Virus record (IMG/VR): IMGVR_UViG_3300002042_000001
Coordinates: 1 to 64,000 of that record
Reading direction: 5' to 3' (one strand)
DNA from: a virus
Length of the DNA: 64,000 nt
The notes under the pieces were generated by a model. It was not told the origin of the DNA and made no database searches. It was given only the letters and a program-made list of their open reading frames with translations. Positions 6,551 to 21,811 of this stretch are shown here, one piece after another. Numbering within the stretch: position 1 is the stretch's first letter; every line of letters begins with the position of its first letter. The translations under genes were made by a program, and so were the position numbers.

Positions 6551-7061
6551 AACAGTCGCACAAACGAAATCAACAGCGGCGGCATCAACCCCCGAAGACA
6601 CGAATACCGCCGCTGTTGCAGCAGCCGAAACCAAATCGACACCGAAAGTTGATAAGGCAAAAGTTGACGCTACAACCAAAACCGAAGCACCAGCACGTAA
6701 TTTCTGCGATGTTGCTGCGCTGACACAGCAGAAATTCACCGCCAACCAGAACGCGCTCAAAGCGAAAAAGGTTGCTGAAAAGGTGAAGAACGCTGTTGCC
6801 GCTATCGAAGTTGGTAAGAAGCTGAGCAAGTACACACGCTCTGCCCTGACGCTACTCAAATCCGAAGGTACGGTTAGCGGCCCAATCATCACCAAACAAT
6901 TCGAAACCGATGGTCTGTCTCCTGGCACTGCACGTGCACAGGCGCAACAGCAGACGGCGTTGTTCAAAGTCATTGGCGTTGCAAAACCCTCTGGTGAAGA
7001 TGGTCGTAAGCTGGTAACAGATGACTCGAAGCTGATCGACGAATTGCTCGCATCAGCATAA
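6480..7061 (+). CDS. hypothetical protein with K/T/A-rich basic N-terminus
   Basis: ATG 6480 with GGAG upstream; overlaps previous ORF by 71 nt in another frame; start uncertain. Confidence 0.5.
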   Translation: MAKRATKPTTKTKASSTSAKSTTKTVAQTKSTAAASTPEDTNTAAVAAAETKSTPKVDKAKVDATTKTEAPARNFCDVAALTQQKFTANQNALKAKKVAEKVKNAVAAIEVGKKLSKYTRSALTLLKSEGTVSGPIITKQFETDGLSPGTARAQAQQQTALFKVIGVAKPSGEDGRKLVTDDSKLIDELLASA

Positions 7062-7941: not shown

Positions 7942-8476
7942 TATAGAACTCTTGGAAAACTTTGCACCAGCGCAAGACGTTGAGAAGCTTTGGGACATGG
8001 TGCGGTGGGATGACACTGATCGTAAGCAAATGGTTCCACGCTATGAGCGGTGGGTGAACGACCTTGGTCGGTGTTACACGTATGGTACAGAACCGTACGA
8101 CCGAACATATACGCCACGCGGTTTTTACGGCAACGATTTCATATTGAAGCAGATGTTGGATATCAACCTCGAAGTTGAAAGCAATTGTTGCTTCATCAAT
8201 GGTTACATCAATCAGTCGCAGCACCTTGGGTGGCATGCAGACGACTCACCTGAAATGTCGCATGATGCGCCTATCATCATTATCAGCTATGGCGCTGAGC
8301 GTGAGATATGGTTCGCGCCCAAAGGGCAGAAGCATGACGTGACACAGGTCAAGATGTCACACCGATCAGCGTTGATTATGCCGGCAGGTATGCAACGCGA
8401 TTGGTTGCATCGTATACCGAAGCTCGACCGCGAATGCGGTAAGCGAATCAGCTACACCTTTAGAACGCTGATTTAA
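7931..8476 (+). CDS. 2OG-Fe(II) oxygenase, AlkB-like
   Basis: LGWHADD ... H ... RISYTFR motif pattern; ATG 7931. Confidence 0.7.
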   Translation: MTPDIELLENFAPAQDVEKLWDMVRWDDTDRKQMVPRYERWVNDLGRCYTYGTEPYDRTYTPRGFYGNDFILKQMLDINLEVESNCCFINGYINQSQHLGWHADDSPEMSHDAPIIIISYGAEREIWFAPKGQKHDVTQVKMSHRSALIMPAGMQRDWLHRIPKLDRECGKRISYTFRTLI

Positions 8477-8625: not shown

Positions 8626-9273
8626 ATGCTCGATTTAGACAACATACGCGAAGGTCAGCAGAAGATACGACAGCACGTCGCGTCGGGTGATAAGTTGCAG
8701 TTGTTACGCATCGACGAGCATAGATCAATATTACATTGGCAGGGCGATGGTATCGAGCATATTCCAAATCAACGCATAGTCATGTGTCAGAACGGCGGCA
8801 ACCAGTTTACCGCAGTCAAGCAAGGTGATGAATACATATTCACTAAGGGTTGGTATCAGATGGACCCCGAAGATTGGCGCGAGACAGCGTTTCGCAGGAA
8901 GCGCCTGCTCGACCTAATCAGGTTATCAACATTCAAACCGCCATCTATTTCGTACGTACCGAAGGCGTTTTGCCACCCTGCCGTGCGTGATGTAATATTC
9001 GGTGAGCATATACTTGGCATCAAGATGCACAAGAGCGACGAGAATAACCAGTGGAACTTTGCGTTGGTGTACCGTGAAGGTAAAGCCGACCAGCAGACCT
9101 CACCAGTGTGGGGTGGTAAACCCTGGGAGAGCATACCAGCGAAAGAGTGGTGCGCTAACTTACCGAAGAAGCCACCTTTACCTTTCAAGAAGTTTGAGGT
9201 AGAGACTATGCAAGATGTAGTTAAAGAAGAAATCGCTGAGCTTGAAGAGCGAGCGGATTGGGGATTGTTTTGA
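8626..9273 (+). CDS. hypothetical protein, C-terminal ...ERADWGLF
   Basis: ORF track 215 aa; leader GAAAGGTAAATA before ATG. Confidence 0.65.
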   Translation: MLDLDNIREGQQKIRQHVASGDKLQLLRIDEHRSILHWQGDGIEHIPNQRIVMCQNGGNQFTAVKQGDEYIFTKGWYQMDPEDWRETAFRRKRLLDLIRLSTFKPPSISYVPKAFCHPAVRDVIFGEHILGIKMHKSDENNQWNFALVYREGKADQQTSPVWGGKPWESIPAKEWCANLPKKPPLPFKKFEVETMQDVVKEEIAELEERADWGLF

Positions 9274-9557
9274 AGAAGATCACGGAATTCAAAGTTGACC
9301 GCCTCAAGAAGTGGTGCGCAGCAGAGTTGTCACCAACTGTGACAATGCGTGGCGACACCGATCTGCTAGTCATCAGCGAAATTATCGTCAAGTCTAGCGG
9401 CGTGGTTATTCTGCGCTCGTTCGACACGGTGAAAGGTTCTGGTGGAATGAATGGCGCCGACAAAGTAATTATGACCGAGCATATCATCGACCCTGAAGAT
9501 ATCTTGGCGGTAACAGTACAGCGAGAGCATGATGGCGAAGAAACCGAAGAAACCTAG
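9258..9557 (+). CDS. hypothetical protein; start uncertain (TTG 9258 or TTGA-coupled TTG 9270)
   Basis: ORF track 99 aa; no ATG near 5' end. Confidence 0.5.
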   Translation: MGIVLKKITEFKVDRLKKWCAAELSPTVTMRGDTDLLVISEIIVKSSGVVILRSFDTVKGSGGMNGADKVIMTEHIIDPEDILAVTVQREHDGEETEET

Positions 9558-9664
9558 CAGCCGCAACCCGATTGCAGGCTCCCGCCATAGAGGTTTGACT
9601 CGCGTTCAGATTATCCCGAACAAGAAGAAACCGAAACGGCACGACAAGCATAAAGGGCAAGAAG

Positions 9665-9991
9665 ATGAAATTTGAATGGGGTTTGGAAGACTTTCGAGTA
9701 GGTCGAAGGGTATGGATTAGTAGCGGTGCATCGAACGGCGAGTGCATGATCGGCTACAACTATAACAGCGCAGTCGAGCCAGTCGATTGGGCCAAGATGA
9801 CAAACAGCGAACGTGATATTTGGCGTGAGTTGAACGATAAGCGCTTTTGCCTTATCAGCCTCACTGATGGCTGCTTGTACAATGAAAACCTGACCGCCCA
9901 GGAAATGGTGGACCAACTCAACAAATACGGCTATCAACCAACGACATTGGAAGGCGATTACATGAAGTATCGCCAGCAGGTCGTGAAATGA
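9665..9991 (+). CDS. hypothetical protein
   Basis: ORF track 108 aa. Confidence 0.6.
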   Translation: MKFEWGLEDFRVGRRVWISSGASNGECMIGYNYNSAVEPVDWAKMTNSERDIWRELNDKRFCLISLTDGCLYNENLTAQEMVDQLNKYGYQPTTLEGDYMKYRQQVVK

Positions 9992-10296
9992 TAGTATTCT
10001 TTGGCGCACCGATCTATACCGCTTCGCTGACCTTCGATGGGTTCGAGCGACCAGTCACCATCAACGGCGGTTTGATACCGCATATAATGCCACAGAAGGT
10101 GCGTGAACCTGACAACGACAACCAACCAGATGACCTCAACGATGGGGAATTCATGTGGAGTGTTGACGTGAAAGCGTTTCACGTGGTAGAGCTAATGGCT
10201 GATACAGAAGAAGAGGCGCGTATCAAAGCAGATCGATACGTGGAACGAATGGGTGGCGATGTTGATGGAACATCAGAAGTGGAGCCGAAGGTATGA
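9988..10296 (+). CDS. hypothetical protein
   Basis: ORF track 102 aa, ATGA coupling. Confidence 0.6.
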   Translation: MIVFFGAPIYTASLTFDGFERPVTINGGLIPHIMPQKVREPDNDNQPDDLNDGEFMWSVDVKAFHVVELMADTEEEARIKADRYVERMGGDVDGTSEVEPKV

Positions 10297-10382
10297 ATGA
10301 CTATGTATATTTAATTGTGCCAATCGCAGGCGTTGTTGTCTCAGTGGCAATTTATGCTTGCGTACGCAGAATGCGTCGCTAG
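10293..10382 (+). CDS. 29-aa single-TM peptide
   Basis: ATGA overlap with upstream stop; MNDYVYLIVPIAGVVVSVAIYACVRRMRR. Confidence 0.35.
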   Translation: MNDYVYLIVPIAGVVVSVAIYACVRRMRR

Positions 10383-10720
10383 TGCCGGCGCCCTGGGATA
10401 ACTTCGTCGATATTAAAAATCGATACCCGCACTTGATCGGGCGTAGCGACGCGTACAACGAGGCTATCGATATGGCTTGGTTGATTACCAATGTCATTAA
10501 ACTGCGCGCCCGCGTGAATGAATTGTTCCGCGCAATCAATGTGCAGGTGGAATTGCGCAGAAAGTACAAACGGCAAAGAGACGCGCTTGACAGCGGTCTA
10601 TCTGACGTGCATATCTTAATTCAAGAGCAAGCACAGGCTGGCATGTACAATATCGAAGATATGCAAGAAGTGCTGGATTATATCGAACACTATCGAGCAA
10701 AGGGTAAAGGTGATGGCTAA
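10358..10720 (+). CDS. hypothetical protein (start TTG 10358 or GTG 10382)
   Basis: ORF track 120 aa. Confidence 0.55.
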   Translation: MRTQNASLVPAPWDNFVDIKNRYPHLIGRSDAYNEAIDMAWLITNVIKLRARVNELFRAINVQVELRRKYKRQRDALDSGLSDVHILIQEQAQAGMYNIEDMQEVLDYIEHYRAKGKGDG

Positions 10721-10916
10721 ATTCACAATTTTCGCACGACCAGATGACGACATTGCATCTATTCTGATTATCCCAAGTGAGGGTGAAGACCCCGAAACCG
10801 CCAAGCGAAATGCTATAGGTCAAATGAACAACCTTGGCTTCGAGCAAGAAGATATGCACATTATCGGCGTGGTTGGCGGTGATATTAACGTATTGGAGTG
10901 GAACGACCGAGCATGA
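10710..10916 (+). CDS. hypothetical protein
   Basis: ORF track 68 aa. Confidence 0.55.
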   Translation: MMAKFTIFARPDDDIASILIIPSEGEDPETAKRNAIGQMNNLGFEQEDMHIIGVVGGDINVLEWNDRA

Positions 10917-11257
10917 CATTGCCCTTAGATATTAGCCACATGGCTTTGCCAGCGCGAACCATGATTACAGACCACGCATCAGTCCGTATACTTGAGGCGT
11001 TGGGCGGTGACGACTTCATCGAGAAGTATAACGCCGATGACTTCTTTAGCAGTGACAATCCGCAACCGCGTATGCAGTTTGCTATGCCGCACAACAACCG
11101 CATGGTGCACTTTGAAATAAGCGAGAAGGAAGACCTAACGCTGATCGTGGTCATGTTTACGGATAAAGGTGACGGGAAGCGAAACTTCTTGCATTGCGAA
11201 TATGATTCAAGCTATGACGAATTGAAAGCAACATTTGAAGACATGCTAGCGAGGTAA
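10913..11257 (+). CDS. hypothetical protein
   Basis: ATGA-coupled ATG 10913 in ORF 10898-11257. Confidence 0.6.
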   Translation: MTLPLDISHMALPARTMITDHASVRILEALGGDDFIEKYNADDFFSSDNPQPRMQFAMPHNNRMVHFEISEKEDLTLIVVMFTDKGDGKRNFLHCEYDSSYDELKATFEDMLAR

Positions 11258-11258
11258 A

Positions 11259-11888
11259 ATGGACACTTCATTCGTCAATGACAAACCAAAAGCAAAGCAG
11301 GCGTTGCAGCTTTGCAAGCTACATCATGCGGGGCAAATGCGAAAGTGGTCGAACGTACCATATTGGCATCATCCGGTCGAAGTAACCGAGATACTATTAC
11401 AGTGCGACTATGTGGACGATGACACGATTGCAGCATCGCTATTGCACGACACCCGCGAAGACACCGATATTACAGTCCATGAGATTGAGGCTATTAGCTC
11501 GAAAACTTTCAGGCTAGTTGAGGCGCTAACCAACACCGAGCGGTGGGCTGGTGATAAGGAACGGCAGCTTGAGCATAACCTGAAACGTTTAAGAGGCGCA
11601 CCACGTGACGCAAAGCTTATCAAAGCTGCTGACGTGCTACACAACAGCCGTGATATCGTGCAAACCAACATCAAACGAGCGCCCAAGTATCTGATTAAAA
11701 AGATACGGACGCTTGAAGCTGTGCAGACAGACTCGAACGTGTGGAGACAGACGCAGAACGAAATGGGCCGTCTGGTCAAACAGGCTCACGCATGGTTCGA
11801 AGAAGATCAGCGGTTGGACCGCGAGCAATTCGAAGACGCCTTGGTATTCATCGAAGCAGAAGAATTGCTACAGCAGGCTTTGTTCTAA
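11259..11888 (+). CDS. RelA/SpoT-family HD hydrolase (Mesh1 / small alarmone hydrolase-like)
   Basis: HHAGQMRKW..VPYWHHPVEV and AASLLHDTREDT motifs. Confidence 0.7.
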   Translation: MDTSFVNDKPKAKQALQLCKLHHAGQMRKWSNVPYWHHPVEVTEILLQCDYVDDDTIAASLLHDTREDTDITVHEIEAISSKTFRLVEALTNTERWAGDKERQLEHNLKRLRGAPRDAKLIKAADVLHNSRDIVQTNIKRAPKYLIKKIRTLEAVQTDSNVWRQTQNEMGRLVKQAHAWFEEDQRLDREQFEDALVFIEAEELLQQALF

Positions 11889-11893
11889 CCCAC

Positions 11894-11921
11894 TTCACGA
11901 ATCATTCCTGATTGCTAAAGT
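11894..11921 (+). promoter_or_regulatory. class I sigma70-like promoter: TTCACG-16-TAAAGT, preceded by AACCCAC
   Basis: conserved AACCCACTTCACGAATC element directly after stop codon. Confidence 0.5.
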
Positions 11922-11942
11922 ATGCTAAAGTATGCTAAAGTT
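11913..11942. repeat. tandem decamer TGCTAAAGTA x3
   Basis: tgctaaagta tgctaaagta tgctaaagtt; flanks attgctaaa / tttagcaat are inverted. Confidence 0.85.
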
Positions 11943-11958
11943 TAGCAATGAAAGGTAC

Positions 11959-12243
11959 ATGATGAAGATCAATGGTTTCAATTTAACGTACCGCGTAGGC
12001 GAGAACCAGCGGTGTCCGTGTTGTCAAAGGCAGCAATGGCATATAGGTCGCACGATGGCTGAATGTGCTTTCTGTGAAATGGCGCTACCTCTAGCCGATC
12101 AAGCAAGACAACCGGCTCAGCCAAGGTACTCCGTTACCAAATCTGGTACGGCAGCGTTTGCATATAGAGCAGCAGATGGGAACGCCGAAAGGTTGCGAAA
12201 TGGTTTCCGTCCTGGCGAGCTACAGGTAATGGTAGCTGGATAA
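11959..12243 (+). CDS. Cys-rich (CxxC...CxxC) hypothetical protein
   Basis: ATG 11959 placed after GAAAGGTAC leader; ORF track 11932-12243. Confidence 0.55.
   Translation: MMKINGFNLTYRVGENQRCPCCQRQQWHIGRTMAECAFCEMALPLADQARQPAQPRYSVTKSGTAAFAYRAADGNAERLRNGFRPGELQVMVAG
12145..12166 (+). promoter_or_regulatory. class II box GGTACGGCAGCGTTTGCATATA inside coding sequence
   Basis: 19-nt identity with copy at 18709-18727, read in a different frame. Confidence 0.45.
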
Positions 12244-12254
12244 GCATTGCCCAC

Positions 12255-12282
12255 TTCAGTTAGCGGTGCGAATCGCTAAGGT
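12255..12282 (+). promoter_or_regulatory. class I-like promoter TTCAGT-16-TAAGGT
   Basis: CCCACTTCAG ... GCGAATCGC context, leader CGAAAGGTAAGAAAATG downstream. Confidence 0.4.
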
Positions 12283-12311
12283 GGTAAGACCAAACAGCGA
12301 AAGGTAAGAAA

Positions 12312-12695
12312 ATGTTTACAGACTTCACTAGCAAAGGTTATCAGCAGCTTGGCGACGAGGTTGTCAGCGAACTAGCTGCACTCGGTCGCAAGCATGGGCT
12401 CGACTTTGATATCGTCGGTGGTTCGGTTGGGATAACCGACATGACGCTTAAAGTAAAAGCGAAGACGATCAATACTGGCGCCATCGAAAAAGAGAAGCGC
12501 GAAGCAATGGACCGCAACGGTATCGGGTTCGGTATTGGCTCTAGCGATTACGGTCGCACATTCATGTTTCGCGGACAAGCTTACAAGCTTGTGGGTATCA
12601 AAGCGTCTCGCCCCAAATATCCTGTACTAGCTGAGCAGGTTGGCACTGAGAAGGTGTACAAATTCCCAGCTAGCGTACTTTCTGAATTGAGGTAA
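12312..12695 (+). CDS. hypothetical protein
   Basis: ORF track 127 aa; conserved leader. Confidence 0.6.
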   Translation: MFTDFTSKGYQQLGDEVVSELAALGRKHGLDFDIVGGSVGITDMTLKVKAKTINTGAIEKEKREAMDRNGIGFGIGSSDYGRTFMFRGQAYKLVGIKASRPKYPVLAEQVGTEKVYKFPASVLSELR

Positions 12696-12698
12696 TCA

Positions 12699-13022
12699 AT
12701 GGCAAATATTGTATTCACAGGCAAGGGTGAAAACCCAAAGGGTGACTTTGTTGTTCGCGCAGAGTGTGAGCGATTGGCTGAAGAGAAAGGTCATCACATC
12801 CAACGCGGTGTAACCAGATCGACCGACTATCTCGTGGCTGCGCGGCACGATACCGTCAAAGCAGACAAAGCGCGTGAGTTTGGAACGCACGTTATCACCT
12901 ACAAGCAATTCTTTGAGTTGCTTGCTGTGGGCGCTATTACAAACAAAGACACGGCGATACCGAAGGTTGAACCGTTGGACTTCTCCGACTGTGAGGACGA
13001 AGAAGGTTGGGGTATGTTCTAA
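12699..13022 (+). CDS. BRCT-domain protein, C-terminal ...EEGWGMF
   Basis: IVFTG...TRSTDYLVAA...KADKAREFGTHVITYKQFFELL resembles LigA-type BRCT. Confidence 0.6.
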   Translation: MANIVFTGKGENPKGDFVVRAECERLAEEKGHHIQRGVTRSTDYLVAARHDTVKADKAREFGTHVITYKQFFELLAVGAITNKDTAIPKVEPLDFSDCEDEEGWGMF

Positions 13023-13397
13023 GTGCCTATTATGAGTGGAGTTTTTGACGAAATGGAAGACGAAGAAGCCCAAGATTATATCAAGAAAATCATGGAGTAT
13101 ACCCCTGACGGGGATAAAGACAGCTACTTCAAACAAATGATGGAAAACGACGCGGTACGTGACCAGCTATGGCACGAGCCAGGTTTGACGATGGGTAAGG
13201 AAGACAAGCGCTGGGAGAAGCGAAAGGTCAACCAAGAAATCGCCGAGCGTAAAGAGCGCGAGCTTGCCGCTGTGGAACAGCGTATGGCGGAAGAAGAACA
13301 ACGCGTCGCGGCTCTTAAAGAGCTTGAAATTGCGAGGGAAAAAGCTAATAAAGAACGTGATGAAAACGAAGGTCGTCCAGAATGGGGTATCTTTTAG
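13023..13397 (+). CDS. charged coiled-coil protein, C-terminal ...RPEWGIF
   Basis: ORF track 124 aa (GTG 13023 or ATG 13032). Confidence 0.6.
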   Translation: MPIMSGVFDEMEDEEAQDYIKKIMEYTPDGDKDSYFKQMMENDAVRDQLWHEPGLTMGKEDKRWEKRKVNQEIAERKERELAAVEQRMAEEEQRVAALKELEIAREKANKERDENEGRPEWGIF

Positions 13398-13416
13398 ATT
13401 TGATGTAGGAATAGCC

Positions 13417-13665
13417 GTGCCAAACCCCAAGATCGTAGCAGGTATCAGAAATCTAAAGAACGCCACCACATCAGCAACCAATGCGGCGGCTGCTACCACT
13501 TCTGCCATGAATAATATGTCAGCAGCAGCTTCACAGGCACAAGCGTCGATGAAAGAATTAGCGCAGAAGTACAACGGTATGAAGGCTACTATGATTATCG
13601 AAGACGACCCTATTATACGCGAACCGATCACGCAAGAAGAGTTAGAAGGGTGGGGAATGTTTTGA
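13417..13665 (+). CDS. hypothetical protein, C-terminal ...LEGWGMF (GTG start inferred)
   Basis: downstream part of ORF 13264-13665; AGGAA 5 nt before GTG 13417. Confidence 0.45.
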   Translation: MPNPKIVAGIRNLKNATTSATNAAAATTSAMNNMSAAASQAQASMKELAQKYNGMKATMIIEDDPIIREPITQEELEGWGMF

Positions 13666-13925
13666 CCCAAGGTAAAGTACCGAAGTGGGAAATGTACGGC
13701 GGGGTGGTCTTCATGGACTACAGCATCTATTGCAAGAAAGATGCAGACACCGAAGAGAAGTTTTGGGCTGTTCGTCTCGCACCGCACTTTGTCGAAGAGT
13801 GCTATGACAAGCTTGGCGACGCTATAGGTGCTGTCTTGCGCAATCATCGCAACGCACAAGCAGAGGTTTTGAACGGTATACGCAGACCAGAACCAGACCC
13901 AAAGCGACCACCGGAAGCCGCTTGA
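13650..13925 (+). CDS. hypothetical protein; start uncertain (GTG 13650 / TTGA-coupled TTG 13662 / ATG 13692)
   Basis: ORF track 91 aa. Confidence 0.5.
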   Translation: MGNVLTQGKVPKWEMYGGVVFMDYSIYCKKDADTEEKFWAVRLAPHFVEECYDKLGDAIGAVLRNHRNAQAEVLNGIRRPEPDPKRPPEAA

Positions 13926-13950
13926 CCATTGCAGGAGAATCGTGCATTAC
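13922..13950 (+). promoter_or_regulatory. sigma70-like promoter TTGACC-17-CATTAC
   Basis: followed by leader ACGAAAGGTAATGCAATG. Confidence 0.4.
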
Positions 13951-13977
13951 AGTTGCAAGACAACGAAAGGTAATGCA

Positions 13978-14688
13978 ATGCGATATGTAAGGTTAGTGGC
14001 AGTCGAAGATGAATACGACAACACACCAGGATTGGCGATTAAAGGTTGTCGCACTGACTATGAAGGTTTCATGGCAGCGCGAGACGGTAACCTGATCGCA
14101 CATGACTTGATTGAACATCAGAACGGGCTTGAAAACATGGGTCCGGTATGGGATGAACTGCAAGCTCTCGGTGGTATATGGCACACACGCGGTCGTTGGG
14201 GTCAAATGCTTACCAAATACGGTTCGCACTTCACACCTGACTACCACATTGGCGCAAGCATTCAACAGATGCACGGCGACCACATGCTGAACGGTTATCA
14301 CCACTTTCACGATTGGGATTTACTCGGCCCCAAGCTCAACACATACGAACATTTGTACGACGAGGATTTCTTATTGTGTATCGAGCAAGCCAGAGGTTTA
14401 ATTGAAGGCGAACGCAAGTCACATTGCGAATGTCCAGACGATCACGAATATTACACCGCAGCACGTGACGCTATCTTGGCGGCGTCATTGCACCACCTAC
14501 GTACTGGCTTTCGCAAAGCAGAGCGACGCTTCGGTGGGTATGACTTCAAATCCCACGACACGTACCGACGCATTCAAGATGCTGTTAATGGTGTTGTGAA
14601 GATGGTCGATTTCGAAGGGCAAGAGTTTCTGCTAGGTTACAGCAGCTACGAAGCCACAATCAGCGAAGTATACGAAGAGGAATATTGA
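13978..14688 (+). CDS. hypothetical protein (236 aa)
   Basis: ATG 13978 at conserved leader spacing; ORF 13942-14688. Confidence 0.65.
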   Translation: MRYVRLVAVEDEYDNTPGLAIKGCRTDYEGFMAARDGNLIAHDLIEHQNGLENMGPVWDELQALGGIWHTRGRWGQMLTKYGSHFTPDYHIGASIQQMHGDHMLNGYHHFHDWDLLGPKLNTYEHLYDEDFLLCIEQARGLIEGERKSHCECPDDHEYYTAARDAILAASLHHLRTGFRKAERRFGGYDFKSHDTYRRIQDAVNGVVKMVDFEGQEFLLGYSSYEATISEVYEEEY

Positions 14689-14689
14689 T

Positions 14690-14965
14690 ATGCTCCACCC
14701 GATGAACCTAGACAACTCACAACCGCACAAAGATGGCGGTCGAGTATGGCCCTTCACACGCGCTGGTGGCTCACAGTTGGTCACCGTGCGACAGCTACCC
14801 AAACCAGTCGCCGGCATTCGGTACACCATACGCGTAACCAACCGCAGCGGTGAAAAGATCGAGAGTTGGGCTTACAAAACAATGACAGGCGCTAAGAAGC
14901 GTGTGATGTTAGAAATGCCAAAAATGGCAATGGCTTATGAGCAATCCCAATTGCAATCTCGTTAG
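14690..14965 (+). CDS. hypothetical protein
   Basis: ORF track 91 aa; contains 22-nt repeat 14708-14729. Confidence 0.5.
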   Translation: MLHPMNLDNSQPHKDGGRVWPFTRAGGSQLVTVRQLPKPVAGIRYTIRVTNRSGEKIESWAYKTMTGAKKRVMLEMPKMAMAYEQSQLQSR

Positions 14966-15002
14966 AAACTAGCTATGTTATTTCTAACAGAAAAGGAATA
15001 GC

Positions 15003-15545
15003 ATGACAGAGTTTGTAGGACACATTCGCGATGGTGGTTTGTTACCGCTAGCGCAAGATTTCGCCGCAGCAGTGATGTTAGCGGGTGACCAGAACGAAAC
15101 CATCCACCGCGAAGGTGAAGATGAAACTTATCTCAAACGTTGGTTTGTGGCTCGCAAGAACATGATACCAACAGTGATCGGTGAACGTATCAGCAAAGAA
15201 GAATCACGCGCAGTAGCGGGCTTCGTGCCAAGCATGGTAGAAAACGTTTACGTGCACAAATTCGGTGCAGGTGACGCGAACGAAACCTTGCACGATCATC
15301 CGTGGTGGAACGTGTCGCTGATAGTCTCCGGTGGGTACACCGAGCAACTGGATGACCGACTGGTCGAGCGCAACCCAGGCGATGTAATTATTCGACAAGC
15401 GGCTGATCGACATGCGATACGGCTAGTCAAACCTGACACCGTAACGATCTTTGGTACGGGCATCAAAGAGCGCGAGTGGGGTTTTTGGGTCGATGGCGAA
15501 TTCGTACATTGGCGTGACTTTCACAATCATACGAGGGAAATATAA
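15003..15545 (+). CDS. hypothetical protein (His-rich, possibly cupin-like)
   Basis: ORF track 180 aa; HDHPWWN ... H. Confidence 0.6.
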   Translation: MTEFVGHIRDGGLLPLAQDFAAAVMLAGDQNETIHREGEDETYLKRWFVARKNMIPTVIGERISKEESRAVAGFVPSMVENVYVHKFGAGDANETLHDHPWWNVSLIVSGGYTEQLDDRLVERNPGDVIIRQAADRHAIRLVKPDTVTIFGTGIKEREWGFWVDGEFVHWRDFHNHTREI

Positions 15546-15727
15546 TGGCCGAAGAAGGTAAATTTGCAGAACGTATGAAGATGCAGCAGCTTGAAATGCA
15601 AGTCGAGCAGGCAGAGCAAAACATGTCCATGTTGAAGAATGTGTTTCGAGAATTATTGATTGATCTTGATGATGAAAATTGGGATAGCATTATCGAAACA
15701 ATTGAGGGTTTTAGAGGTAAGGTATGA
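15545..15727 (+). CDS. small coiled-coil protein
   Basis: ORF track 60 aa. Confidence 0.55.
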   Translation: MAEEGKFAERMKMQQLEMQVEQAEQNMSMLKNVFRELLIDLDDENWDSIIETIEGFRGKV

Positions 15728-15948
15728 GACGCAAGCTAGAAGATGATGGCTTAATTCATATCGACCTTACCGGACCTGCGGGTAACGCGTATTCTCTCAT
15801 GGGTACGGCAGAGCAGATCGCTAAGTCAGAAGGTTGGGATGAACAGTAGATCGAAGCGCTGGTGGAAAACATGAAGTCAGGCGACTATGAACACCTAGTC
15901 TCGGTGTTGGATGATACGTTTGGGGAGTTGGTGGTTTTATATGAGTAA
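15724..15948 (+). pseudogene. 73-codon gene interrupted by in-frame TAG at 15847-15849
   Basis: ATGA-coupled start; 41 codons, TAG, 32 further sense codons; end overlaps next start. Confidence 0.5.
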
Positions 15949-16255
15949 ATTCACAGCAGAGTATCGCGTGGACAATCGCACTTTCAGTCTCGACATTGAA
16001 GCTGAAGGGTGGCAAGAAGCTGAATTCAAACTTGAAGCGTTGCGTGACAATGGCTACTTCGTAGAGAAAGACGTGATCGAGTATCAGTTGGACTCGTTCG
16101 TCTATCGAGCGCGTTGCAGGCATTTCGAGACCGAAGAAGAAGCACGCCGGCACTTGGCTATAATCAAGTTTCATTCACGCATAACGGGTGAAGTAGTGTT
16201 TCGCACGAAAGTGCCCAACTTCTTTGCTGGTCTGATATCAAAACGGATAGACTAA
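15941..16255 (+). CDS. hypothetical protein
   Basis: ATG 15941 within ORF 15911-16255. Confidence 0.6.
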   Translation: MSKFTAEYRVDNRTFSLDIEAEGWQEAEFKLEALRDNGYFVEKDVIEYQLDSFVYRARCRHFETEEEARRHLAIIKFHSRITGEVVFRTKVPNFFAGLISKRID

Positions 16256-16260
16256 CCCAC

Positions 16261-16288
16261 TATGCGAATCGTCGTAACGTGCTATTGA
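16261..16288 (+). promoter_or_regulatory. class I promoter TATGCG-16-TATTGA after AACCCAC
   Basis: element starts right after TAA 16253-16255; leader ACGAAAGGTAAACGAAATG. Confidence 0.5.
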
Positions 16289-16318
16289 TGGTGCACAAGC
16301 TAACGAAAGGTAAACGAA

Positions 16319-16597
16319 ATGCTTTTAGACACTATCACAGATCAAGAGACGCGCTTCACCATTGCAGACTTTGGTGATGGCGAAATCGGAATTATCGACA
16401 CCGATGATGCGCTGGAAAGCACAGACGTACCGTGGACGATTGAAATGTGGCAAGATCACGCTCACAACGGATGCGGAGCTAGCAACTGGCAACTTGATGC
16501 GCACAATCGCACACTCGACTTGGAATTCTGTAGCTCACGATCAATGACGACCGAAGAGTGGGATGACTTTCAAGATCACTTGGAAGAAATCGCATGA
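16319..16597 (+). CDS. acidic hypothetical protein
   Basis: ORF track 92 aa. Confidence 0.6.
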   Translation: MLLDTITDQETRFTIADFGDGEIGIIDTDDALESTDVPWTIEMWQDHAHNGCGASNWQLDAHNRTLDLEFCSSRSMTTEEWDDFQDHLEEIA

Positions 16598-17187
16598 ACA
16601 TTGACGAAATACGCCGCAGCAGTTACCGAAACTTTCACACGCGAGGGCTCGACTACGTTTGCCTAAGTCGTGGTGACAGTCTGACTGTGAAGGCGTATTT
16701 CATTCATGGTGACGTGACAGACGCACCAGAGCTTGTAGTGCCACACAATCATCGGTACGACTTCACCACACAGGTGTTGGATGGGCAAGTAAGTAACCAG
16801 ACATTCGACATGACCAACGGCGATGGCGTGCAGCTATTCGACTACCGCACACCGCTCAATGGTGGCGATGGTTTTACGTGGGTTGATGAATGCGGTCTCG
16901 AAGTGGCAGATGATATCTGCTATCACAAGGGTGAAACCTATCACCAGCGAGCGCATGAAATCCACACGCTGAAATTGCACAGCAAAGATACGGTGCTTAT
17001 ATTGTACCAGTTTGAAGACGTGTTGGATTTAAGCGAACCGTCGCAGTCATTTAGGATTGGTGACGGTAAAGAGCTACCGAATATGGATGGGCTCTATGAT
17101 GAATTCTCTAACGATCAGATCATGCAGCGGCTTGCACGATTGCGTCACCTTGGCTTCGAAACGAGACTATTAGATGGTTATGCGTGA
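16594..17187 (+). CDS. hypothetical protein (His-rich, possibly cupin-like)
   Basis: ORF track 197 aa, ATGA coupling. Confidence 0.6.
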   Translation: MNIDEIRRSSYRNFHTRGLDYVCLSRGDSLTVKAYFIHGDVTDAPELVVPHNHRYDFTTQVLDGQVSNQTFDMTNGDGVQLFDYRTPLNGGDGFTWVDECGLEVADDICYHKGETYHQRAHEIHTLKLHSKDTVLILYQFEDVLDLSEPSQSFRIGDGKELPNMDGLYDEFSNDQIMQRLARLRHLGFETRLLDGYA

Positions 17188-17204
17188 CAGAGAAGTTATC
17201 GAAT

Positions 17205-17315
17205 ATGATGGGTACTTATGGTCACCATATCAAACCTTACCAGCTACGCAAGAGCATTGAGCTTGACGAGCTTCTTAAATCGCACGGAGACGAAGATAAT
17301 TGGGGATTGTACTAG
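17205..17315 (+). CDS. 36-aa protein ending ...GDEDNWGLY
   Basis: ATG 17205; shares the C-terminal W-G tail motif. Confidence 0.4.
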   Translation: MMGTYGHHIKPYQLRKSIELDELLKSHGDEDNWGLY

Positions 17316-17352
17316 CCACTGGTGGTAACCGTTAGCGTCTGCTAACACAATA

Positions 17353-17565
17353 ATGAAAGTGAAGAAACGAATGGAACAAGACGTAGAGCAAGAATTGTGC
17401 GACGAGTTGGCAGCGTGGTGCAAGAAGAACGGGCTACCTGAAAGCGACCTTGATCGCTTGATGACTAGCGAAGGGCTCACCGACGATCAATACGAATGGC
17501 TCACCAAATACTCGGTGCGCTGGAACGAAATGATCGACGAGCAATACGGTTTAATGCCAGCATAG
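17353..17565 (+). CDS. hypothetical protein
   Basis: ORF track 70 aa. Confidence 0.55.
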   Translation: MKVKKRMEQDVEQELCDELAAWCKKNGLPESDLDRLMTSEGLTDDQYEWLTKYSVRWNEMIDEQYGLMPA

Positions 17566-17574
17566 GAGATAACA

Positions 17575-17991
17575 ATGGCAACAGAAGCACAAATTCAAGC
17601 CTCAATCGAAAGATCGCAGGCTAAAAAGCAACCAAAGGCGGAATTCAGCAACGCTGACTTGCTCGCTGATAGCGGTCTTAGCATCGCGCACTTCCAACGG
17701 GAAGACACCCCGTTGCTGCGCGACATGACGGTGGCGTATGATTGTCAATACGACAATATCATCACCATGGCGACCGCAGTATGTCACCGCAAGGACACGT
17801 TCTGCAAGAAATTCGGTACGCGTACGGCTATCGAAAACTTCCAGGCTGGTGAAGTAATTCGCATGCCACGTGACCGTTCGGTTACCGCATACCAGCAGAT
17901 CGGTCTTATGGTAGGTGCAATGATGCGTTCGCCAGAAGGTATGATGGATGCTATCCGCAAGGATATCTTCGAAGGGCGGTTTGACCGATGA
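17575..17991 (+). CDS. hypothetical protein
   Basis: ORF track 138 aa; GGAG before ATG. Confidence 0.65.
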   Translation: MATEAQIQASIERSQAKKQPKAEFSNADLLADSGLSIAHFQREDTPLLRDMTVAYDCQYDNIITMATAVCHRKDTFCKKFGTRTAIENFQAGEVIRMPRDRSVTAYQQIGLMVGAMMRSPEGMMDAIRKDIFEGRFDR

Positions 17992-18332
17992 ACGAAGATG
18001 ATGGCGTTGAAAACGTAGAAATTCTCGGTACGCATAACGTCGCAACCGATGGCCCATTCAAAGCATCTATGAGCGTATTGCTGATCGGTGTGGAAGGTGA
18101 GTACGAAGGTTACGACGCATGGGCAGAGATTGACCTGCCGGTGGGTATGCGACCGTCAGACGAGAAGCTTGAAGAAATGTTGGCGTGCGCCCTTGAGCAA
18201 GCTCCTGGCTTTCGTCTCGCAACGCGCAAAGAATTCATGCAACGTATCTTGGCTGAACGCACAGGTGCGGACGTGAATTTCAGTGTCCCAGGTCCGACTG
18301 AGTTTCGGTTGAAAGCGAAGGTTGATGGGTGA
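17988..18332 (+). CDS. hypothetical protein
   Basis: ORF track 114 aa, ATGA coupling. Confidence 0.6.
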   Translation: MNEDDGVENVEILGTHNVATDGPFKASMSVLLIGVEGEYEGYDAWAEIDLPVGMRPSDEKLEEMLACALEQAPGFRLATRKEFMQRILAERTGADVNFSVPGPTEFRLKAKVDG

Positions 18333-18669
18333 CGATGGTTTTATAGACTATACCAAGCCAATTTTTGACGATCAGGGTTTTCGCCTTTGCATTGTTAAGG
18401 TTGAGCTTCAAGATGGACAGTCTGTGACTATACCTGATACGGTGGAAAATAAGACTTTATGCATGTACATTGAAGAAGGTACGTCATTTGCTTTAGGGTA
18501 CTGGGCGTCAAATAACCGAACGTTAGACTACGCTTGGTTTGACTCTTGGGGTAATATGCATGATGTTAACAGCGCGAACGTAGGTGGGGAGTACCCTACT
18601 GGACCGATTACAAACGAGGATAAAAGTATGATTGACGCAGATAAGAATCCTCTTTGGGGTTTGATGTAA
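18325..18669 (+). CDS. hypothetical protein, C-terminal ...KNPLWGLM
   Basis: ORF track (TTG 18322 / ATG 18325). Confidence 0.6.
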   Translation: MGDDGFIDYTKPIFDDQGFRLCIVKVELQDGQSVTIPDTVENKTLCMYIEEGTSFALGYWASNNRTLDYAWFDSWGNMHDVNSANVGGEYPTGPITNEDKSMIDADKNPLWGLM

Positions 18670-18878
18670 TGAATAAAGCGCCACCCTTTGATGAAGCTCT
18701 GGTACGGCAGCGTTTGAAAACGCGTCACAGGGTGGCGTTAAACGTCATCAAGTTGCACTCTTGGGCGCCGAATGTGTTGATGTATTTCGTCCGCGAAAAA
18801 CTTATGATGGTCGATATGGATAAGGGTGGTAACCTAATGGGTACATCGCAAATCTGTCACGGCTTAGTTGAGCAATGA
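18669..18878 (+). CDS. hypothetical protein
   Basis: TAATG-coupled ATG 18669; contains class II-like box 18711-18727. Confidence 0.55.
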   Translation: MNKAPPFDEALVRQRLKTRHRVALNVIKLHSWAPNVLMYFVREKLMMVDMDKGGNLMGTSQICHGLVEQ

Positions 18879-18952
18879 TATCAATGGGTTAAGGCGTATT
18901 GGCTTTACAGTACGTTTACAGATCGTAACCGCTTTGGGAGTTATTTGTAAAC

Positions 18953-19132
18953 ATGGCAAGGAAGAAACCAAGACAGCGTTTCAAGAAGGTGAATAGTCAA
19001 GACTTGAAAGATCGCCGCAAGAGGTTCGCGGTGCGCAGAAAGGGCGCTCGCAAGTCAACCCTCGAAGAGCTAAACAAGCTCGACGAAGCAATCGCGGCGG
19101 AAGAGAATAACCCTGACTGGGGAATGTTCTAG
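18953..19132 (+). CDS. 59-aa protein, basic N-terminus, C-terminal ...NNPDWGMF
   Basis: ATG 18953 to TAG 19130-19132; just below ORF-track cutoff. Confidence 0.55.
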   Translation: MARKKPRQRFKKVNSQDLKDRRKRFAVRRKGARKSTLEELNKLDEAIAAEENNPDWGMF

Positions 19133-19136
19133 CCTG

Positions 19137-19165
19137 TTGCAACGCAGCATGCGAGTCGCTAATCA
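19137..19165 (+). promoter_or_regulatory. sigma70-like promoter TTGCAA-17-TAATCA
   Basis: followed by leader ACGAAAGGTTTTTAAC with ATC at the usual ATG position. Confidence 0.4.
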
Positions 19166-19280
19166 GGTTGCAACACAACGAAAGGTTTTTAACATCGAAA
19201 AATTAGCACAGGTAGTAGGTGGCGTAATCGGTCTCGGTGTCGCGTATCTTCTTATACAAACATTCTTTTGGATTAACTGA
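19149..19280 (+). CDS. small TM protein; start ambiguous (ATG 19149 without SD, or ATC 19194 at leader start position)
   Basis: frame ...IEKLAQVVGGVIGLGVAYLLIQTFFWIN, TGA overlaps ATG 19280. Confidence 0.3.
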   Translation: MRVANQVATQRKVFNIEKLAQVVGGVIGLGVAYLLIQTFFWIN

Positions 19281-19573
19281 TGACAGAAAGTCTTCATAAA
19301 TTCTGCGACCGCTACGGCTTAGATATAGCGCAGTTTGATAAGTTGTTCGCCAACCTCAAGCTAAACAAACCATATCAGGTCGATTGGTTGATGCAGTTTC
19401 ACCACCCAACGGTGCAGCGGGCTCTCGAAGAAGATATTACGGCGTTGCGAATGATACGTGACGATTATCGTAGGGCTGATGCGCAAGGTGACTTCATCGC
19501 CGCGCACCAGAATTGGAAAGCTGAAGTTGAGGCTATGAAAGATGAAGAAAACCCTCTATGGGGTCTATTGTAG
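19280..19573 (+). CDS. hypothetical protein, C-terminal ...EENPLWGLL
   Basis: ORF track 97 aa. Confidence 0.6.
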   Translation: MTESLHKFCDRYGLDIAQFDKLFANLKLNKPYQVDWLMQFHHPTVQRALEEDITALRMIRDDYRRADAQGDFIAAHQNWKAEVEAMKDEENPLWGLL

Positions 19574-20254: not shown

Positions 20255-20417
20255 TCGGTGGCAACGTAAGCAAAATCCAAAAATGGTTCGCGACCCAAGA
20301 AAAGATGTCGAAACCGTAGAGCAGCGCGAAGCGCGCATAAAAGTAAAATTGAAGCAAAAGCTGGCGCGAGAACGTGAAGAACAACGCGAAGAGCTTATAG
20401 AGGTGGCTTTATTTTAA
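20244..20417 (+). CDS. basic coiled-coil protein ending ...EVALF
   Basis: ORF 20232-20417; ATG 20244. Confidence 0.5.
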   Translation: MKASRWQRKQNPKMVRDPRKDVETVEQREARIKVKLKQKLAREREEQREELIEVALF

Positions 20418-20422
20418 CCCAC

Positions 20423-20450
20423 TTTGCGAATCGTTATTGTCTGTTATTGT
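20423..20450 (+). promoter_or_regulatory. class I promoter TTTGCG-16-TATTGT after AACCCAC
   Basis: element begins at stop codon; leader ACGAAAGGTAAGACAGTG. Confidence 0.5.
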
Positions 20451-21777: not shown

Positions 21778-21782
21778 CCCAC

Positions 21783-21811
21783 TTCACAAATCAGGAGCAA
21801 CGCGGTAAAAG
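21783..21811 (+). promoter_or_regulatory. class I promoter TTCACA-17-TAAAAG after AACCCAC
   Basis: leader TGAAAGGTAAGAACA followed by ATA. Confidence 0.45.

Follow-up and report, generated by a model that had tools for sequence, protein, structure and literature searches.

A recurrent C-terminal tail in small phage proteins

Why should eight small proteins of one phage, with no apparent relationship to each other, end in the same few residues? This question is raised by a 64-kb window of viral DNA (positions 1 to 64,000 of IMG/VR record IMGVR_UViG_3300002042_000001, part of a 103-kb contig). A preliminary description of it listed eight open reading frames with an acidic stretch followed by Trp-Gly and two hydrophobic residues before the stop codon. 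That observation is confirmed and proved stronger than first described. The eight C-termini are exactly as listed: ERADWGLF (stop ending at 9273), DEEGWGMF (13022), GRPEWGIF (13397), ELEGWGMF (13665), DEDNWGLY (17315), KNPLWGLM (18669), NNPDWGMF (19132) and ENPLWGLL (19573). A census of all six reading frames of the window found these eight ORFs ending in W-G-[L/M/I]-[F/Y/L/M]-stop and no others, all on the + strand between 8.6 and 19.6 kb.

Such a number far exceeds chance. First-order Markov simulations of the window gave a mean of 0.18 (maximum 2 of 300), the internal frequency of a generalized pattern gave an expectation of 0.27 (P = 5e-10), and within-gene residue shuffles for the strict pattern gave a mean of 0.003 (maximum 1 in 5000). 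Of the 23 WG dipeptides in all called proteins, eight sit at positions -4/-3. The similarity resides in the peptide and not in the DNA, as had been proposed, since the codons and flanking DNA differ and no DNA repeat covers the tails.

The eight carriers

Carrier 1 (8626..9273, +; 215 aa) ends in EERADWGLF, with tail codons at 9259-9270. A globular domain of about 178 residues is followed by a variable linker of about 30 residues and the tail. An AlphaFold model gave pLDDT values of 75-92 for residues 1-178 and of 50-65 for the linker and tail, and no fold match was found in the PDB. Its orthologue in L052, a syntenic metagenomic relative, is 51 % identical and ends in QREDWGLF. Carrier 2 (12699..13022, +; 107 aa) ends in CEDEEGWGMF and had been described as a BRCT domain protein. 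This assignment falls just below the Pfam cut-off (PTCB-BRCT, 21.4 against 22 bits) but is backed by matches to PHROG ligase-BRCT families at 1e-9. Three homologues of 58-66 % identity end in EGWGLF, EGWGIF and EGWGIF. Carrier 3 (13023..13397, +; 114-124 aa, starting at GTG 13023 or ATG 13053) is highly charged, probably helical, and ends in GRPEWGIF; its L052 orthologue is 25 % identical and ends in AREDWGLF. Carrier 4 (13417..13665, +) comprises about 82 aa from GTG 13417, preceded by AGGA, whereas the longer ORF from TTG 13264 overlaps carrier 3. It ends in EELEGWGMF, and its L052 orthologue, 27 % identical, ends in EELEGWGSF.

Carrier 5 (17184..17315, +) ends in GDEDNWGLY and had been counted as a 36-aa protein, which corresponds to a start at ATG 17205; it may instead start at GTG 17184, which overlaps the upstream stop (GTGA), giving 43 aa. 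No orthologue was found in L052, so its status as a gene is the least secure of the eight. Carrier 6 (18325..18669, +; 114 aa) ends in DKNPLWGLM, and its stop overlaps a downstream ATG (TAATG at 18667-18671); the L052 orthologue is 32 % identical and ends in GDELWGLM. Carrier 7 (18953..19132, +; 59 aa) has a very basic N-terminal half and ends in EENNPDWGMF, and no orthologue was found in L052. Carrier 8 (19280..19573, +; 97 aa) ends in DEENPLWGLL. Its only database match is itself, but an L052 orthologue, 32 % identical, ends in EDLEGWGEF.

The carriers had also been called early genes, which remains an assumption, as sigma-70-like promoters are not enriched (15 found against 17.2 expected). 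The TTG starts of the next genes proposed to overlap the stop codons (TTGA at 9270 and 13662) are plausible, but each is only one of several candidate starts. In a rival reading at the RNA level, TGGGGN, encoding Trp-Gly, would be kept as a Shine-Dalgarno-like element coupling translation of the next gene, with the peptide as a by-product. In four of eight cases a candidate start lies 5-10 nt after TGGGG (TTG 9270, GTG 13023, TTG 13662 and ATG 18669). In the other four, however, there is no coupled start or the next gene has its own Shine-Dalgarno sequence. Moreover, relatives use Phe or Tyr (TTY/TAY) in place of Trp, which destroys the G-run, the last two residues stay hydrophobic through different codons, and the upstream acidic and N-P residues are part of the pattern. 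This explanation is therefore considered highly improbable.

Conservation of the tail in related phages

The tail is under purifying selection. Six carriers have orthologues in L052 and all six keep the tail: the last four residues are 79 % identical, compared with 40 % in the linker and 36 % in the body. Trp and Gly are identical at 12 of 12 positions (P = 4.5e-6), while the codons change synonymously (GGT/GGA, TTG/CTG). An exhaustive HMMER search with carrier 1 found six distant homologues of 23-28 % identity, all of which keep a tail (NPLWGQF, NPLFGAFG, EVWGMFG, SPIYGIC, HPGAFMF and HPLAFMF), although the linker is unalignable. Similarly, all seven orthologous pairs between the Pseudomonas phages hairong and nickie keep their version of the tail at 27-68 % identity. 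Absence from homologues and a lack of enrichment over shuffled controls had been named beforehand as outcomes that would refute the proposal, and neither was observed.

Related phages carry the same kind of tail on other, unrelated proteins. Relatives of the SSU5/Nickievirus/RHEph10 group bear lineage-specific versions, such as NPxFGRF and YGxWA, on 5-11 genes each. In hairong 11 tails were found against 0.41 expected, and in RHEph10 five against 0.38, while nickie has eight in 50 kb, X66 five in 70 kb and L052 seven in 18.8 kb. By contrast, 26 more distant loci of the metagenome scan (L020-L050 apart from L022) have none on either strand. A blind DNA-pattern scan of 2.9 million viral contigs returned eight loci, three of which belong to this phage group. 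Use of the tail is nevertheless uneven across the group: SSU5 has none of the canonical tails, only three W-x-x-W ends, and the loci L017 and L018 show a single tail each in 11-14 kb.

These data also bear on whether the common end is merely historical, the carriers being fast-diverging paralogues or sharing a recombined C-terminal cassette. In favor of this view, the carriers cluster within 11 kb, some are adjacent (12699-13665), and a weak similarity exists between coiled-coil-like stretches of carriers 1 and 3 (a repeat family; 37.5 % over 24 residues). However, BLASTP detected no relationship among the bodies of the eight proteins, and a comparison of the tail-less bodies of 27 carriers found only one orthologous pair. 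Sizes range from 36 to 215 aa, and domain content differs (BRCT against a domain with no PDB fold match). Neutral remnants would not stay 79 % identical while bodies fall to 36 %, nor recur on different protein families in distant phages. Common descent is the least likely explanation.

Docking motif, degron or mimic

The tail is best described as a C-terminal short linear motif of the general form acidic-[N/H]-P-x-Ar-G-x-Ar-(x)-COOH, that is, a net-acidic, Pro-containing flexible stretch followed by two aromatic anchors around Gly, with no or one further residue before the stop. In this phage it reads W-G-[L/M/I]-[F/Y/L/M], often preceded by N-P-x. The 20 residues before the tail carry a net charge of -2.2, against -0.5 in other proteins (P = 0.004), and Pro sits at -2 or -3 in 16 of 24 carriers. 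Together with the low-confidence linker and tail of the one carrier modelled, this is what a shared recognition tag on a flexible tether looks like.

The preliminary description inferred a docking or degron tag aimed at one hub, by analogy with SSB tails, the T7 gp2.5 tail and clamp-binding peptides; this interpretation is only partly supported, because the choice between docking and degradation is not decided, the hub is not identified, and the named analogues do not fit as families. In the acidic tip of bacterial SSB (DDDIPF) and the tails of T7 gp2.5 and gp4, an acidic flexible stretch likewise ends in an aromatic residue at or next to the C-terminus and serves as a docking peptide. In those systems, however, one hub protein carries the tail and many partners read it, whereas here many clients carry it. 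The I-P-F signature is absent, and the relatives' own gp32-type SSBs end in a different acidic-amphipathic tail (LDDLLAELDAL). The closest functional analogy is offered by the gp45 clamp-binding tails of T4/RB69 and PIP-box peptides (gp43, gp33, gp55; Q-x-x-[LIM]-x-x-[FY][FY]), where several functionally different phage proteins share a C-terminal hydrophobic or aromatic peptide for one hub. The consensus differs, with Ar-G-x-Ar and no Q-x-x-h spacing, no gp45/PCNA-like clamp was recognised in these genomes, and the carriers are more numerous (5-11 per genome) and include many tiny ORFs.

The host β sliding clamp (DnaN) is an improbable but not excluded hub, to which degenerate motifs would recruit phage proteins, or for which they would compete. 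Clamp-binding motifs (Q-phi-x-[L/M]-[F/L]) of bacterial polymerases, Hda, MutS and others are likewise short, often at the extreme C-terminus of many unrelated proteins, with hydrophobic anchors that plug into one pocket of a hub in DNA metabolism. Relatives encode a Pol III alpha polymerase and a DnaQ-like exonuclease, with no clamp recognised, and this phage's replicase of that type would presumably use the host clamp. The window's tails, ending in [L/M/I]-[F/L], resemble QLGLF of Pol II at positions 3-5, and a review states that the LF moiety can bind on its own and that the pocket accepts very different motifs. On the other hand, the defining Gln is absent in eight of eight tails, position 2 is Trp instead of an aliphatic residue, and Gly is invariant. 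The relatives' versions place R, K, E, T or G at position 4, which must be L or M, and many add a residue after the last aromatic. The clamp pocket is highly conserved among bacteria, so lineage-specific tails are unexpected for this hub.

A degron or timing tag, marking proteins for removal by one protease and limiting their activity to one phase of infection, is unlikely but also not excluded. The protease could be a host enzyme reading non-polar C-termini or the HslV-like peptidase of some relatives. The window's tails are non-polar, a property linked to instability in bacterial C-terminal degrons, and most carriers are small proteins of unknown function. Furthermore, hairong, nickie and RHEph10, all rich in tails, encode an HslV-family peptidase, whereas SSU5 has no canonical tails and lacks it. 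However, no HslV-like gene lies in the 64-kb window, in L052 or in the part of X66 examined. The invariant Gly, the fixed i/i+3 aromatic spacing and the upstream N/H-P go beyond what non-polar-end degrons need, and the relatives' tails carry charged residues at x (FGRF, YGKWA). Conserved carriers, including the WGR protein beside the primase, the Gam-like protein and the proteins beside Rad50/Mre11, are replication- or repair-linked and not obvious candidates for timed destruction.

A further possibility, regarded as very unlikely, is mimicry of the C-terminal peptide by which the small subunit of ribonucleotide reductase docks on the large subunit, which would place proteins on NrdA or compete there. 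RNR beta tails are classical acidic-aromatic docking peptides, and in two relatives NrdB itself ends in TWGDAFN and DWGDAF, close to the tails of the same contigs (NPLWGQF, EVWGMFG). The NrdB of hairong ends in W and its tails in W-[A/S], while those of RHEph10 and X66 end in F, as do their tails. Only four NrdB tails were available, too few to test co-variation, and the NrdB of this phage lies outside the window. In SSU5, NrdB ends in QFADL and the tail-like ends are WATW, which does not fit. The spacing also differs (W-G-D-A-F against W-G-x-F), the RNR tail is a one-to-one subunit contact, and it is not obvious why 8-11 unrelated proteins would all bind NrdA.

A proposed address tag for one hub

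The enrichment, the peptide-level selection, the conservation in orthologues, the distribution across the phage group with lineage-specific versions and the tethered architecture are established by the sequence analysis, whereas docking rather than degradation, and the existence of a single hub and its nature, are inferred. That the tail is a selected recognition tag read by a common partner of some kind is very likely, while the docking reading as a whole is only somewhat more likely than not. No clamp-like or other peptide-binding hub was recognised in the window, where the replication genes of this phage were not seen, or among the relatives' unannotated replication proteins. Carriers with recognisable domains are DNA end- or nick-binding proteins: BRCT, WGR, and a protein annotated as Mu Gam-like end protection in nickie and host nuclease inhibitor in hairong. 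Conserved carriers also sit next to the primase and the Rad50/Mre11-like genes. As most carriers have no recognisable function, this link to DNA metabolism rests on a few annotated cases and on gene position. The lineage-specific versions (WGΦF, FGRF, YGxWA) fit a co-evolving partner, and the hub is tentatively placed in phage DNA replication, recombination or repair, more likely phage-encoded than host-encoded, although the combined claim of a phage-encoded replication or repair protein is held with rather low confidence.

In this view, the two aromatic or hydrophobic anchors, set three residues apart by the invariant Gly, would insert into one pocket of a single partner, and many unrelated accessory proteins would be tethered to the same hub, in the way clamp-binding or SSB-tip peptides work. 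No description of such a tail was found in the literature searched. Kept by evolution while the rest of each protein drifts, in this phage and its distant relatives, it looks like an undescribed address tag that plugs many proteins into one still unidentified partner.

The C-terminal tails and their expected frequency

The preliminary description had listed eight C-termini of a common form, and this observation holds. Listing all ORFs between 8 and 20.5 kb reproduces these C-termini exactly as written there, and a census of every stop-to-stop ORF in all six frames of the 64-kb window finds exactly eight endings of the form W-G-[L/M/I]-[F/Y/L/M]-stop, all on the + strand, with stops ending at 9273, 13022, 13397, 13665, 17315, 18669, 19132 and 19573. 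Chance gives far fewer. Markov-1 simulations of the window give a mean of 0.18 such endings, at most 2 in 300, while the internal frequency of a broader pattern predicts 0.27 among 115 called genes (P = 5e-10). Shuffling residues within each gene gives 0.003 per genome for the strict pattern, never more than 1 in 5000 trials. Eight of the 23 Trp-Gly dipeptides in all called proteins sit exactly at positions -4/-3, and 8 of the 32 + strand genes that end in this 11-kb stretch carry the tail. A further ORF at 22495-22695 (+) ends in SWYTWGC, that is, W-G plus one residue before the stop, and could be a degenerate ninth tail or could be chance.

The tail is a feature of the peptide and not a DNA repeat, as the tail codons differ, the downstream DNA differs, and no repeat family covers the tails. 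Three further ORFs, with stops at 11888, 20417 and 21777, provide an instructive contrast. Their -ALF ends looked at first like a second tail class, but they share the DNA GCTTTRTTYTAACCCACTTYRCRAATC, which occurs five times against 0.01 expected and is followed by a conserved leader. The -ALF ends are therefore an effect of a promoter-like DNA cassette that overlaps the stop, and they are unrelated to the tails. The repeated element, TTYTAACCCACTTYRCRAATC, lies on the + strand at 11883-11903, 16250-16270, 20412-20432, 21772-21792 and 23919-23939. About 45 nt downstream lies the leader, CRACAAAACGAAAGGTAAG-N-ATG, with copies at 12290, 13956, 16296, 19171, 20459, 22263, 23971, 24977 and 25674, and the copy at 20377-20430 is conserved in L052, a syntenic metagenomic relative. 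The arrangement looks like a phage-specific promoter plus leader/SD cassette. A second repeat of 22 nt, GGTACGGCAGCGTTTTCATATA, has six copies on the + strand in the small-ORF region (6030-6051, 8124-8145, 12145-12166, 18701-18722, 23798-23819 and 25441-25462) and could be a regulatory site or a second promoter class. Early expression of the carriers, as the preliminary description had it, remains an assumption: sigma-70-like promoters are not enriched (15 found against 17.2 expected), and the repeated phage-specific cassettes are better promoter candidates.

Genome context

The window encodes a tape measure protein, portal, large terminase and major head protein, a DEAD-type helicase, two ParB-like proteins, two ABC-type ATPases, RtcB, an RNA ligase, an ATP-dependent DNA ligase, a DnaQ-like exonuclease, thymidylate and nucleotide enzymes, and four tRNAs. 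The genome belongs to the SSU5/Nickievirus/RHEph10 type of ~105-120-kb siphoviruses, with which it shares core genes and synteny (DEAD helicase, two ParB-like genes, two ABC ATPases, TerL, portal, capsid). Its portal is 43-47 % identical to those of the group, its gene order matches that of phage hairong, and 28 window proteins have homologues in these genomes. A megablast of the region against GenBank phages gave no match, so that no close relative is present among them. The proteins occur only on one 103.5-kb JGI contig, so the window covers about 60 % of the genome, and the replication genes of this phage lie outside it.

The tRNA cluster at 420-2103 (tRNA-Asn, Trp, Lys, His), together with RtcB at 30884-32164 (-), the RNA ligase at 32125-33126 (-) and a metallophosphatase at 29133-29828 (-), looks like a tRNA-repair kit of the kind that phages use against anticodon nucleases. 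A gene at 33336-33827 (-) has a strong match to the lipid desaturase domain (PF10520, E = 3e-32) and sits in the nucleotide-metabolism module, next to a dCMP deaminase and a cytidylate kinase; it is an unusual auxiliary gene for a phage.

The carrier proteins

The carriers range from 36 to 215 aa, and Pfam and PHROGs recognise only a BRCT-like domain in the 107-aa protein. In Pfam, PF12738 scores 21.4 bits against a cut-off of 22 and PF00533 scores 16.8 against 21.3, both below the gathering score, whereas the PHROG ligase-BRCT families match at 1e-9 and 2e-8, and one homologue carries precomputed PF00533 and PF12738 hits. With the last 12 residues removed, 27 carriers from four genomes show no BLASTP similarity to each other, apart from one orthologous pair between two relatives. 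The 20 residues before the tail are net acidic (-2.2 against -0.5 in other proteins, P = 0.004), and a proline lies two or three residues before the first aromatic in 16 of 24 carriers. An AlphaFold model of the 215-aa carrier, built on an alignment of its homologues, has a confident globular domain (residues 1-178), followed by a low-confidence linker, a helix and an unstructured tail. A fold search with this predicted domain found no significant match in the PDB, and a profile of the tails against all PDB chain sequences gave no hit.

Conservation of the tail

The tail is under purifying selection. Back-translated searches of IMG/VR with the 215-aa and BRCT-like carriers returned nothing, and word-index homology searches with the 215-aa carrier and with the carrier whose stop ends at 19573 found only the queries themselves. 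An exhaustive HMMER search of 1.84 billion representatives, however, found six true homologues of the 215-aa protein at 23-28 % identity in the full-length alignment. All of them end in a version of the tail (AEDNPLWGQF, ESNPLFGAFG, ENSEVWGMFG, EDSPIYGIC, EEHPGAFMF and EDHPLAFMF), while the ~30-residue linker in front is unalignable. Two of their contigs share the window's gene order, in which AAA_28 and RNase_T are followed, further along, by the 2OG-Fe(II) oxygenase and this protein. The homologues of the BRCT-like carrier (58-66 % identical) end in EGWGLF, EGWGIF and EGWGIF.

One of the latter homologues lies on L052, a 56.8-kb contig that is about 70 % identical to the window at the DNA level and fully syntenic with it. 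L052 has seven tails in 18.8 kb; six of the window's eight carriers have orthologues there, and all six keep the tail. Pooled over the six pairs, identity is 36 % in the body, 40 % in the linker and 79 % in the last four residues. Trp and Gly are identical at 12 of 12 positions (P = 4.5e-6), with synonymous changes such as GGT/GGA and TTG/CTG. Paralogy or cassette shuffling as the origin of the common end is contradicted by this conservation, by the differing codons and flanking DNA, and by the lack of similarity among the bodies. Two small carriers (17184-17315 and 18953-19132) have no detectable orthologue in L052, and L052 has one tail gene without a tailed counterpart; tails are therefore also gained and lost.

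Lineage-specific versions in the phage group

Tails of this kind are a hallmark of the phage group, although their use is uneven. The Pseudomonas phage hairong has 11 (0.41 expected), typically [Y/F/W]-G-x-[W/F]-[A/S/G] and in one case NPEWGTW, and the Pseudomonas phage nickie has 8 in the 50 kb retrieved, with endings such as FGGWA, FGGWS, FGHFS and NPQYGIW. The Rhizobium phage RHEph10 has 5 (0.38 expected), namely NPRFGMF, ENFGRF, NPMFGRF, HPNYGRF and HPNFGRF, and the Rhizobium phage X66 has 5 in the 70 kb retrieved, namely YGRF, FGAF, FGGF, FGAF and YGTF. Gene calls in the relatives were made with a crude caller and checked against the annotation of the records, so that these counts could shift by one or two. 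All seven orthologous pairs between hairong and nickie keep the tail at 27-68 % body identity. SSU5 has none of the canonical form, only three W-x-x-W ends.

In L022 (Ga0209125_1000455), a 42 %-identical metagenomic relative, six of 44 genes end in D-x-W-COOH (DPTW, VGAW, GDSW, SDNW, CGDW and PDSW; + strand genes ending at 5287, 14807, 16711, 17754, 19323 and 19691), and one ends in PGWGEFA. This may be a further diverged version of the tail, to which the WATW, WATW and AWDW ends of SSU5 may also belong. Another 26 more distant loci (L020-L050 apart from L022) from the same metagenome scan, which used a three-sequence alignment, have no tails on either strand and serve as a negative control. 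A blind scan of 2.9 million viral contigs for GAN-GAN-NNN-TGG-GGN-ATG-TTY-stop returned eight loci, three of which turned out to be members of this same group. One of them, L002, carries the orthologue of the RHEph10 WGR protein ending in PEWGTW, followed by a small gene ending in DTWGMF.

The general form is an acidic stretch, then [N/H/S]-P-x, then Ar-G-x-Ar with 0-1 further residue before the carboxyl end. Gly is invariant in 24 of 24 carriers, whereas the x position is lineage-specific: hydrophobic in the window's clade, mostly Arg in RHEph10, and free in the Pseudomonas phages.

The conserved Trp-Gly codons may also serve as a weak Shine-Dalgarno element for translational coupling, since candidate downstream starts at 9270, 13023, 13662 and 18669 lie 5-10 nt after the TGGGG of the tail codons, one of them forming a TAATG overlap. 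This is possible as a secondary use in four of eight cases, but it cannot explain the other four, the Phe/Tyr versions, or the conserved last two residues.

Functions suggested by the carriers

Where a domain or an annotation exists, it points to DNA ends and nicks. Examples are the BRCT-like domain in the window, WGR in RHEph10 gp034 and its X66 counterpart, located right after the primase and before the ligase, and a protein annotated as Mu Gam-like end protection in nickie and as host nuclease inhibitor in hairong. Two proteins lie directly after the Rad50/Mre11-like pair in hairong and nickie, and SSU5_076 occupies the same position. The relatives' replication module consists of DnaB, a primase, Pol III alpha, a DnaQ-like exonuclease, a gp32-type SSB, a RecA/UvsX-like recombinase, CobS/CobT-like ATPases and RNR.

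No sliding clamp was recognised. When the unannotated replication-module proteins of hairong were scanned for a clamp or peptide-binding domain, only gp32 and Rad50/SbcC were recognised. A ~270-aa protein at 6261-7061 (+), conserved next to the DnaQ-like exonuclease in all seven genomes compared, was considered as a possible clamp. It has a long acidic, Ala/Thr-rich, low-complexity N-half and a conserved ~100-aa C-terminal domain, matches no family, and shows nothing at the sequence level that points to a clamp. Its annotated TTG start overlaps the preceding ORF (6071-6550), so the true start is probably later.

Comparison with known docking peptides and degrons

In how it seems to work, the tail is closest to clamp-binding peptides. 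The β-clamp-binding motif is defined as Q-phi-x-[L/M]-[F/L] (PMC11139829). Position 1, where the motif has Gln, is D, G, E, G, N, L, D and L in the eight tails, and position 2, where it has an aliphatic residue, is Trp in 8 of 8 window tails and W, F or Y in the relatives. Only the last two positions match, and not in every tail: in the window, L or M stands at position 4 in 7 of 8 tails and F or L at position 5 in 6 of 8, whereas relatives' versions such as FGRF, YGKWA and FGGWS violate position 4. The clamp pocket is conserved across bacteria, while the tails vary by lineage. The host β clamp is nevertheless not excluded for this phage alone, because the LF moiety can bind on its own (PMC11139829).

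The nearest phage example is the T4 gp45-binding tails of gp43, gp33 and gp55. The tails described here lack the Gln and the i/i+3/i+4 pattern of PIP-box or gp45-binding peptides (Q-x-x-[L/I/M]-x-x-[F/Y]-[F/Y], or L-x-x-h-F spacing), their consensus being Ar-G-x-Ar. SSB tips, the T7 gp2.5/gp4 tails and RNR beta tails are more distant analogues, and the tail does not fit the defining features of these families either. In contrast to the SSB tip, an acidic run ending in I/L-P-F-COOH on an OB-fold SSB, the tails end in W-G-h-h without P-F, and no carrier matches an SSB family in Pfam or PHROGs. The gp32-type SSBs of the group (hairong_059, locus L010 6742-7581; RHEph10 gp051; SSU5_057; X66 SSB) carry their own conserved acidic-amphipathic C-terminal tail (DDLDSLLEAE, DVLADLDSI, LDDLLAELDAL, AILAELDNLV), a second docking peptide distinct from the shared tail in the same phages.

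RNR alpha is another candidate partner. The RNR small subunits (NrdB) of two metagenomic relatives, L017 (3467-4423) and L018 (678-1631), end in TWGDAFN and DWGDAF, close to the shared tail of the same contigs, although the four NrdB sequences at hand are too few to assess co-variation with the tails. In RHEph10 both NrdB (DTADDEF) and glutaredoxin (SSGDDDF) carry a different acidic-Phe end. Either RNR alpha is a candidate hub, or this is a parallel docking system.

A degron is a further possibility, since non-polar ends would suit one. Stand-alone HslV-family peptidase genes occur in three tail-rich relatives, hairong (hairong_165, locus L011 10466-10993), nickie (gp006, locus L051 47282-47809) and RHEph10 (gp093, locus L014 1556-2008), and the hairong protein begins Met-Thr-Thr, like the mature N-terminus of E. 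coli HslV. This is a possible link to the tails as a degron or docking site, but no such gene was found in the window, SSU5, L052 or the retrieved part of X66. In addition, the conserved carriers appear to be core DNA-metabolism accessory proteins, and the motif is more specific than known non-polar-end degrons require. None of the tails ends in A-A, as an ssrA-type ClpX degron ([L/V]-A-A-COOH) would. The penultimate residue in the window is L, M or I rather than the Tyr of an HbYX docking tail (hydrophobic-Tyr-X), which the x-W/F-[A/S/G] ends of hairong and nickie resemble only loosely.

Resemblances to the GroEL strongly-binding peptide SWMTTPWGFLHP and to the colicin E9 TolB epitope ENNPWGG were considered, but could not be documented in the literature and are not used as evidence. 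Full-text literature searches on the tail strings, phage C-terminal or short linear motifs, and hub peptides found no description of this tail. C-terminal linear motifs that dock on a hub are already known; what is new here is the consensus and the phage group, together with a presumed hub that remains unidentified.

Proposed mechanism and biological significance

The preliminary description had interpreted the tails as a shared docking or degron tag aimed at one hub, and this interpretation is partly supported. The best-supported reading is that a C-terminal motif on a flexible acidic tether (for example AMKDEENPLWGLL) plugs many unrelated proteins into one pocket of a common partner. The analysis itself establishes the enrichment, the peptide-level selection, the conservation in orthologues, the distribution across the group and, for one modelled carrier, the tethered architecture. 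Binding itself, recruitment rather than destruction as the purpose of recognition, the existence of one hub, and its place in DNA replication or repair are inferred, as is its co-evolution with the tail, which the lineage-specific versions suggest. One extra residue after the last aromatic is tolerated in the Pseudomonas phages and in some metagenomic homologues, which argues that the free carboxylate would not be read as strictly as in PDZ- or SSB-tip-type pockets, although the near-terminal position is obligatory.

A bolder reading, unlikely but compatible with the evidence, is that the tails define a previously unknown, phage-encoded organiser unrelated to sliding clamps or SSB. One protein of this phage group would read Ar-G-x-Ar C-termini and thereby gather 5-11 otherwise unrelated accessory proteins (DNA-end binders, host-takeover or anti-defence factors) at the replication and repair machinery, with the pocket and the tail co-evolving lineage by lineage. 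In a more exotic variant, the Ar-Gly bond would be a processing or conjugation site, as in Atg8-type or ubiquitin-like precursors.

The motif retrieved members of the group from 2.9 million contigs by pattern alone, and the same approach, a census of C-termini within each genome, could reveal similar tags in other phages. Most phage early-region genes are small, fast-evolving and of unknown function. A shared, selected C-terminal tag on 5-11 of them per genome would mean that they act through one common partner, so that a single pull-down with a 10-residue peptide could assign a context to many of these genes at once. It would also add a hub-and-peptide principle for phage replication or host takeover, in a phage group that includes phage-plasmids of Enterobacteria and phages of plant pathogens (Pseudomonas syringae, Xanthomonas) and of Rhizobium.
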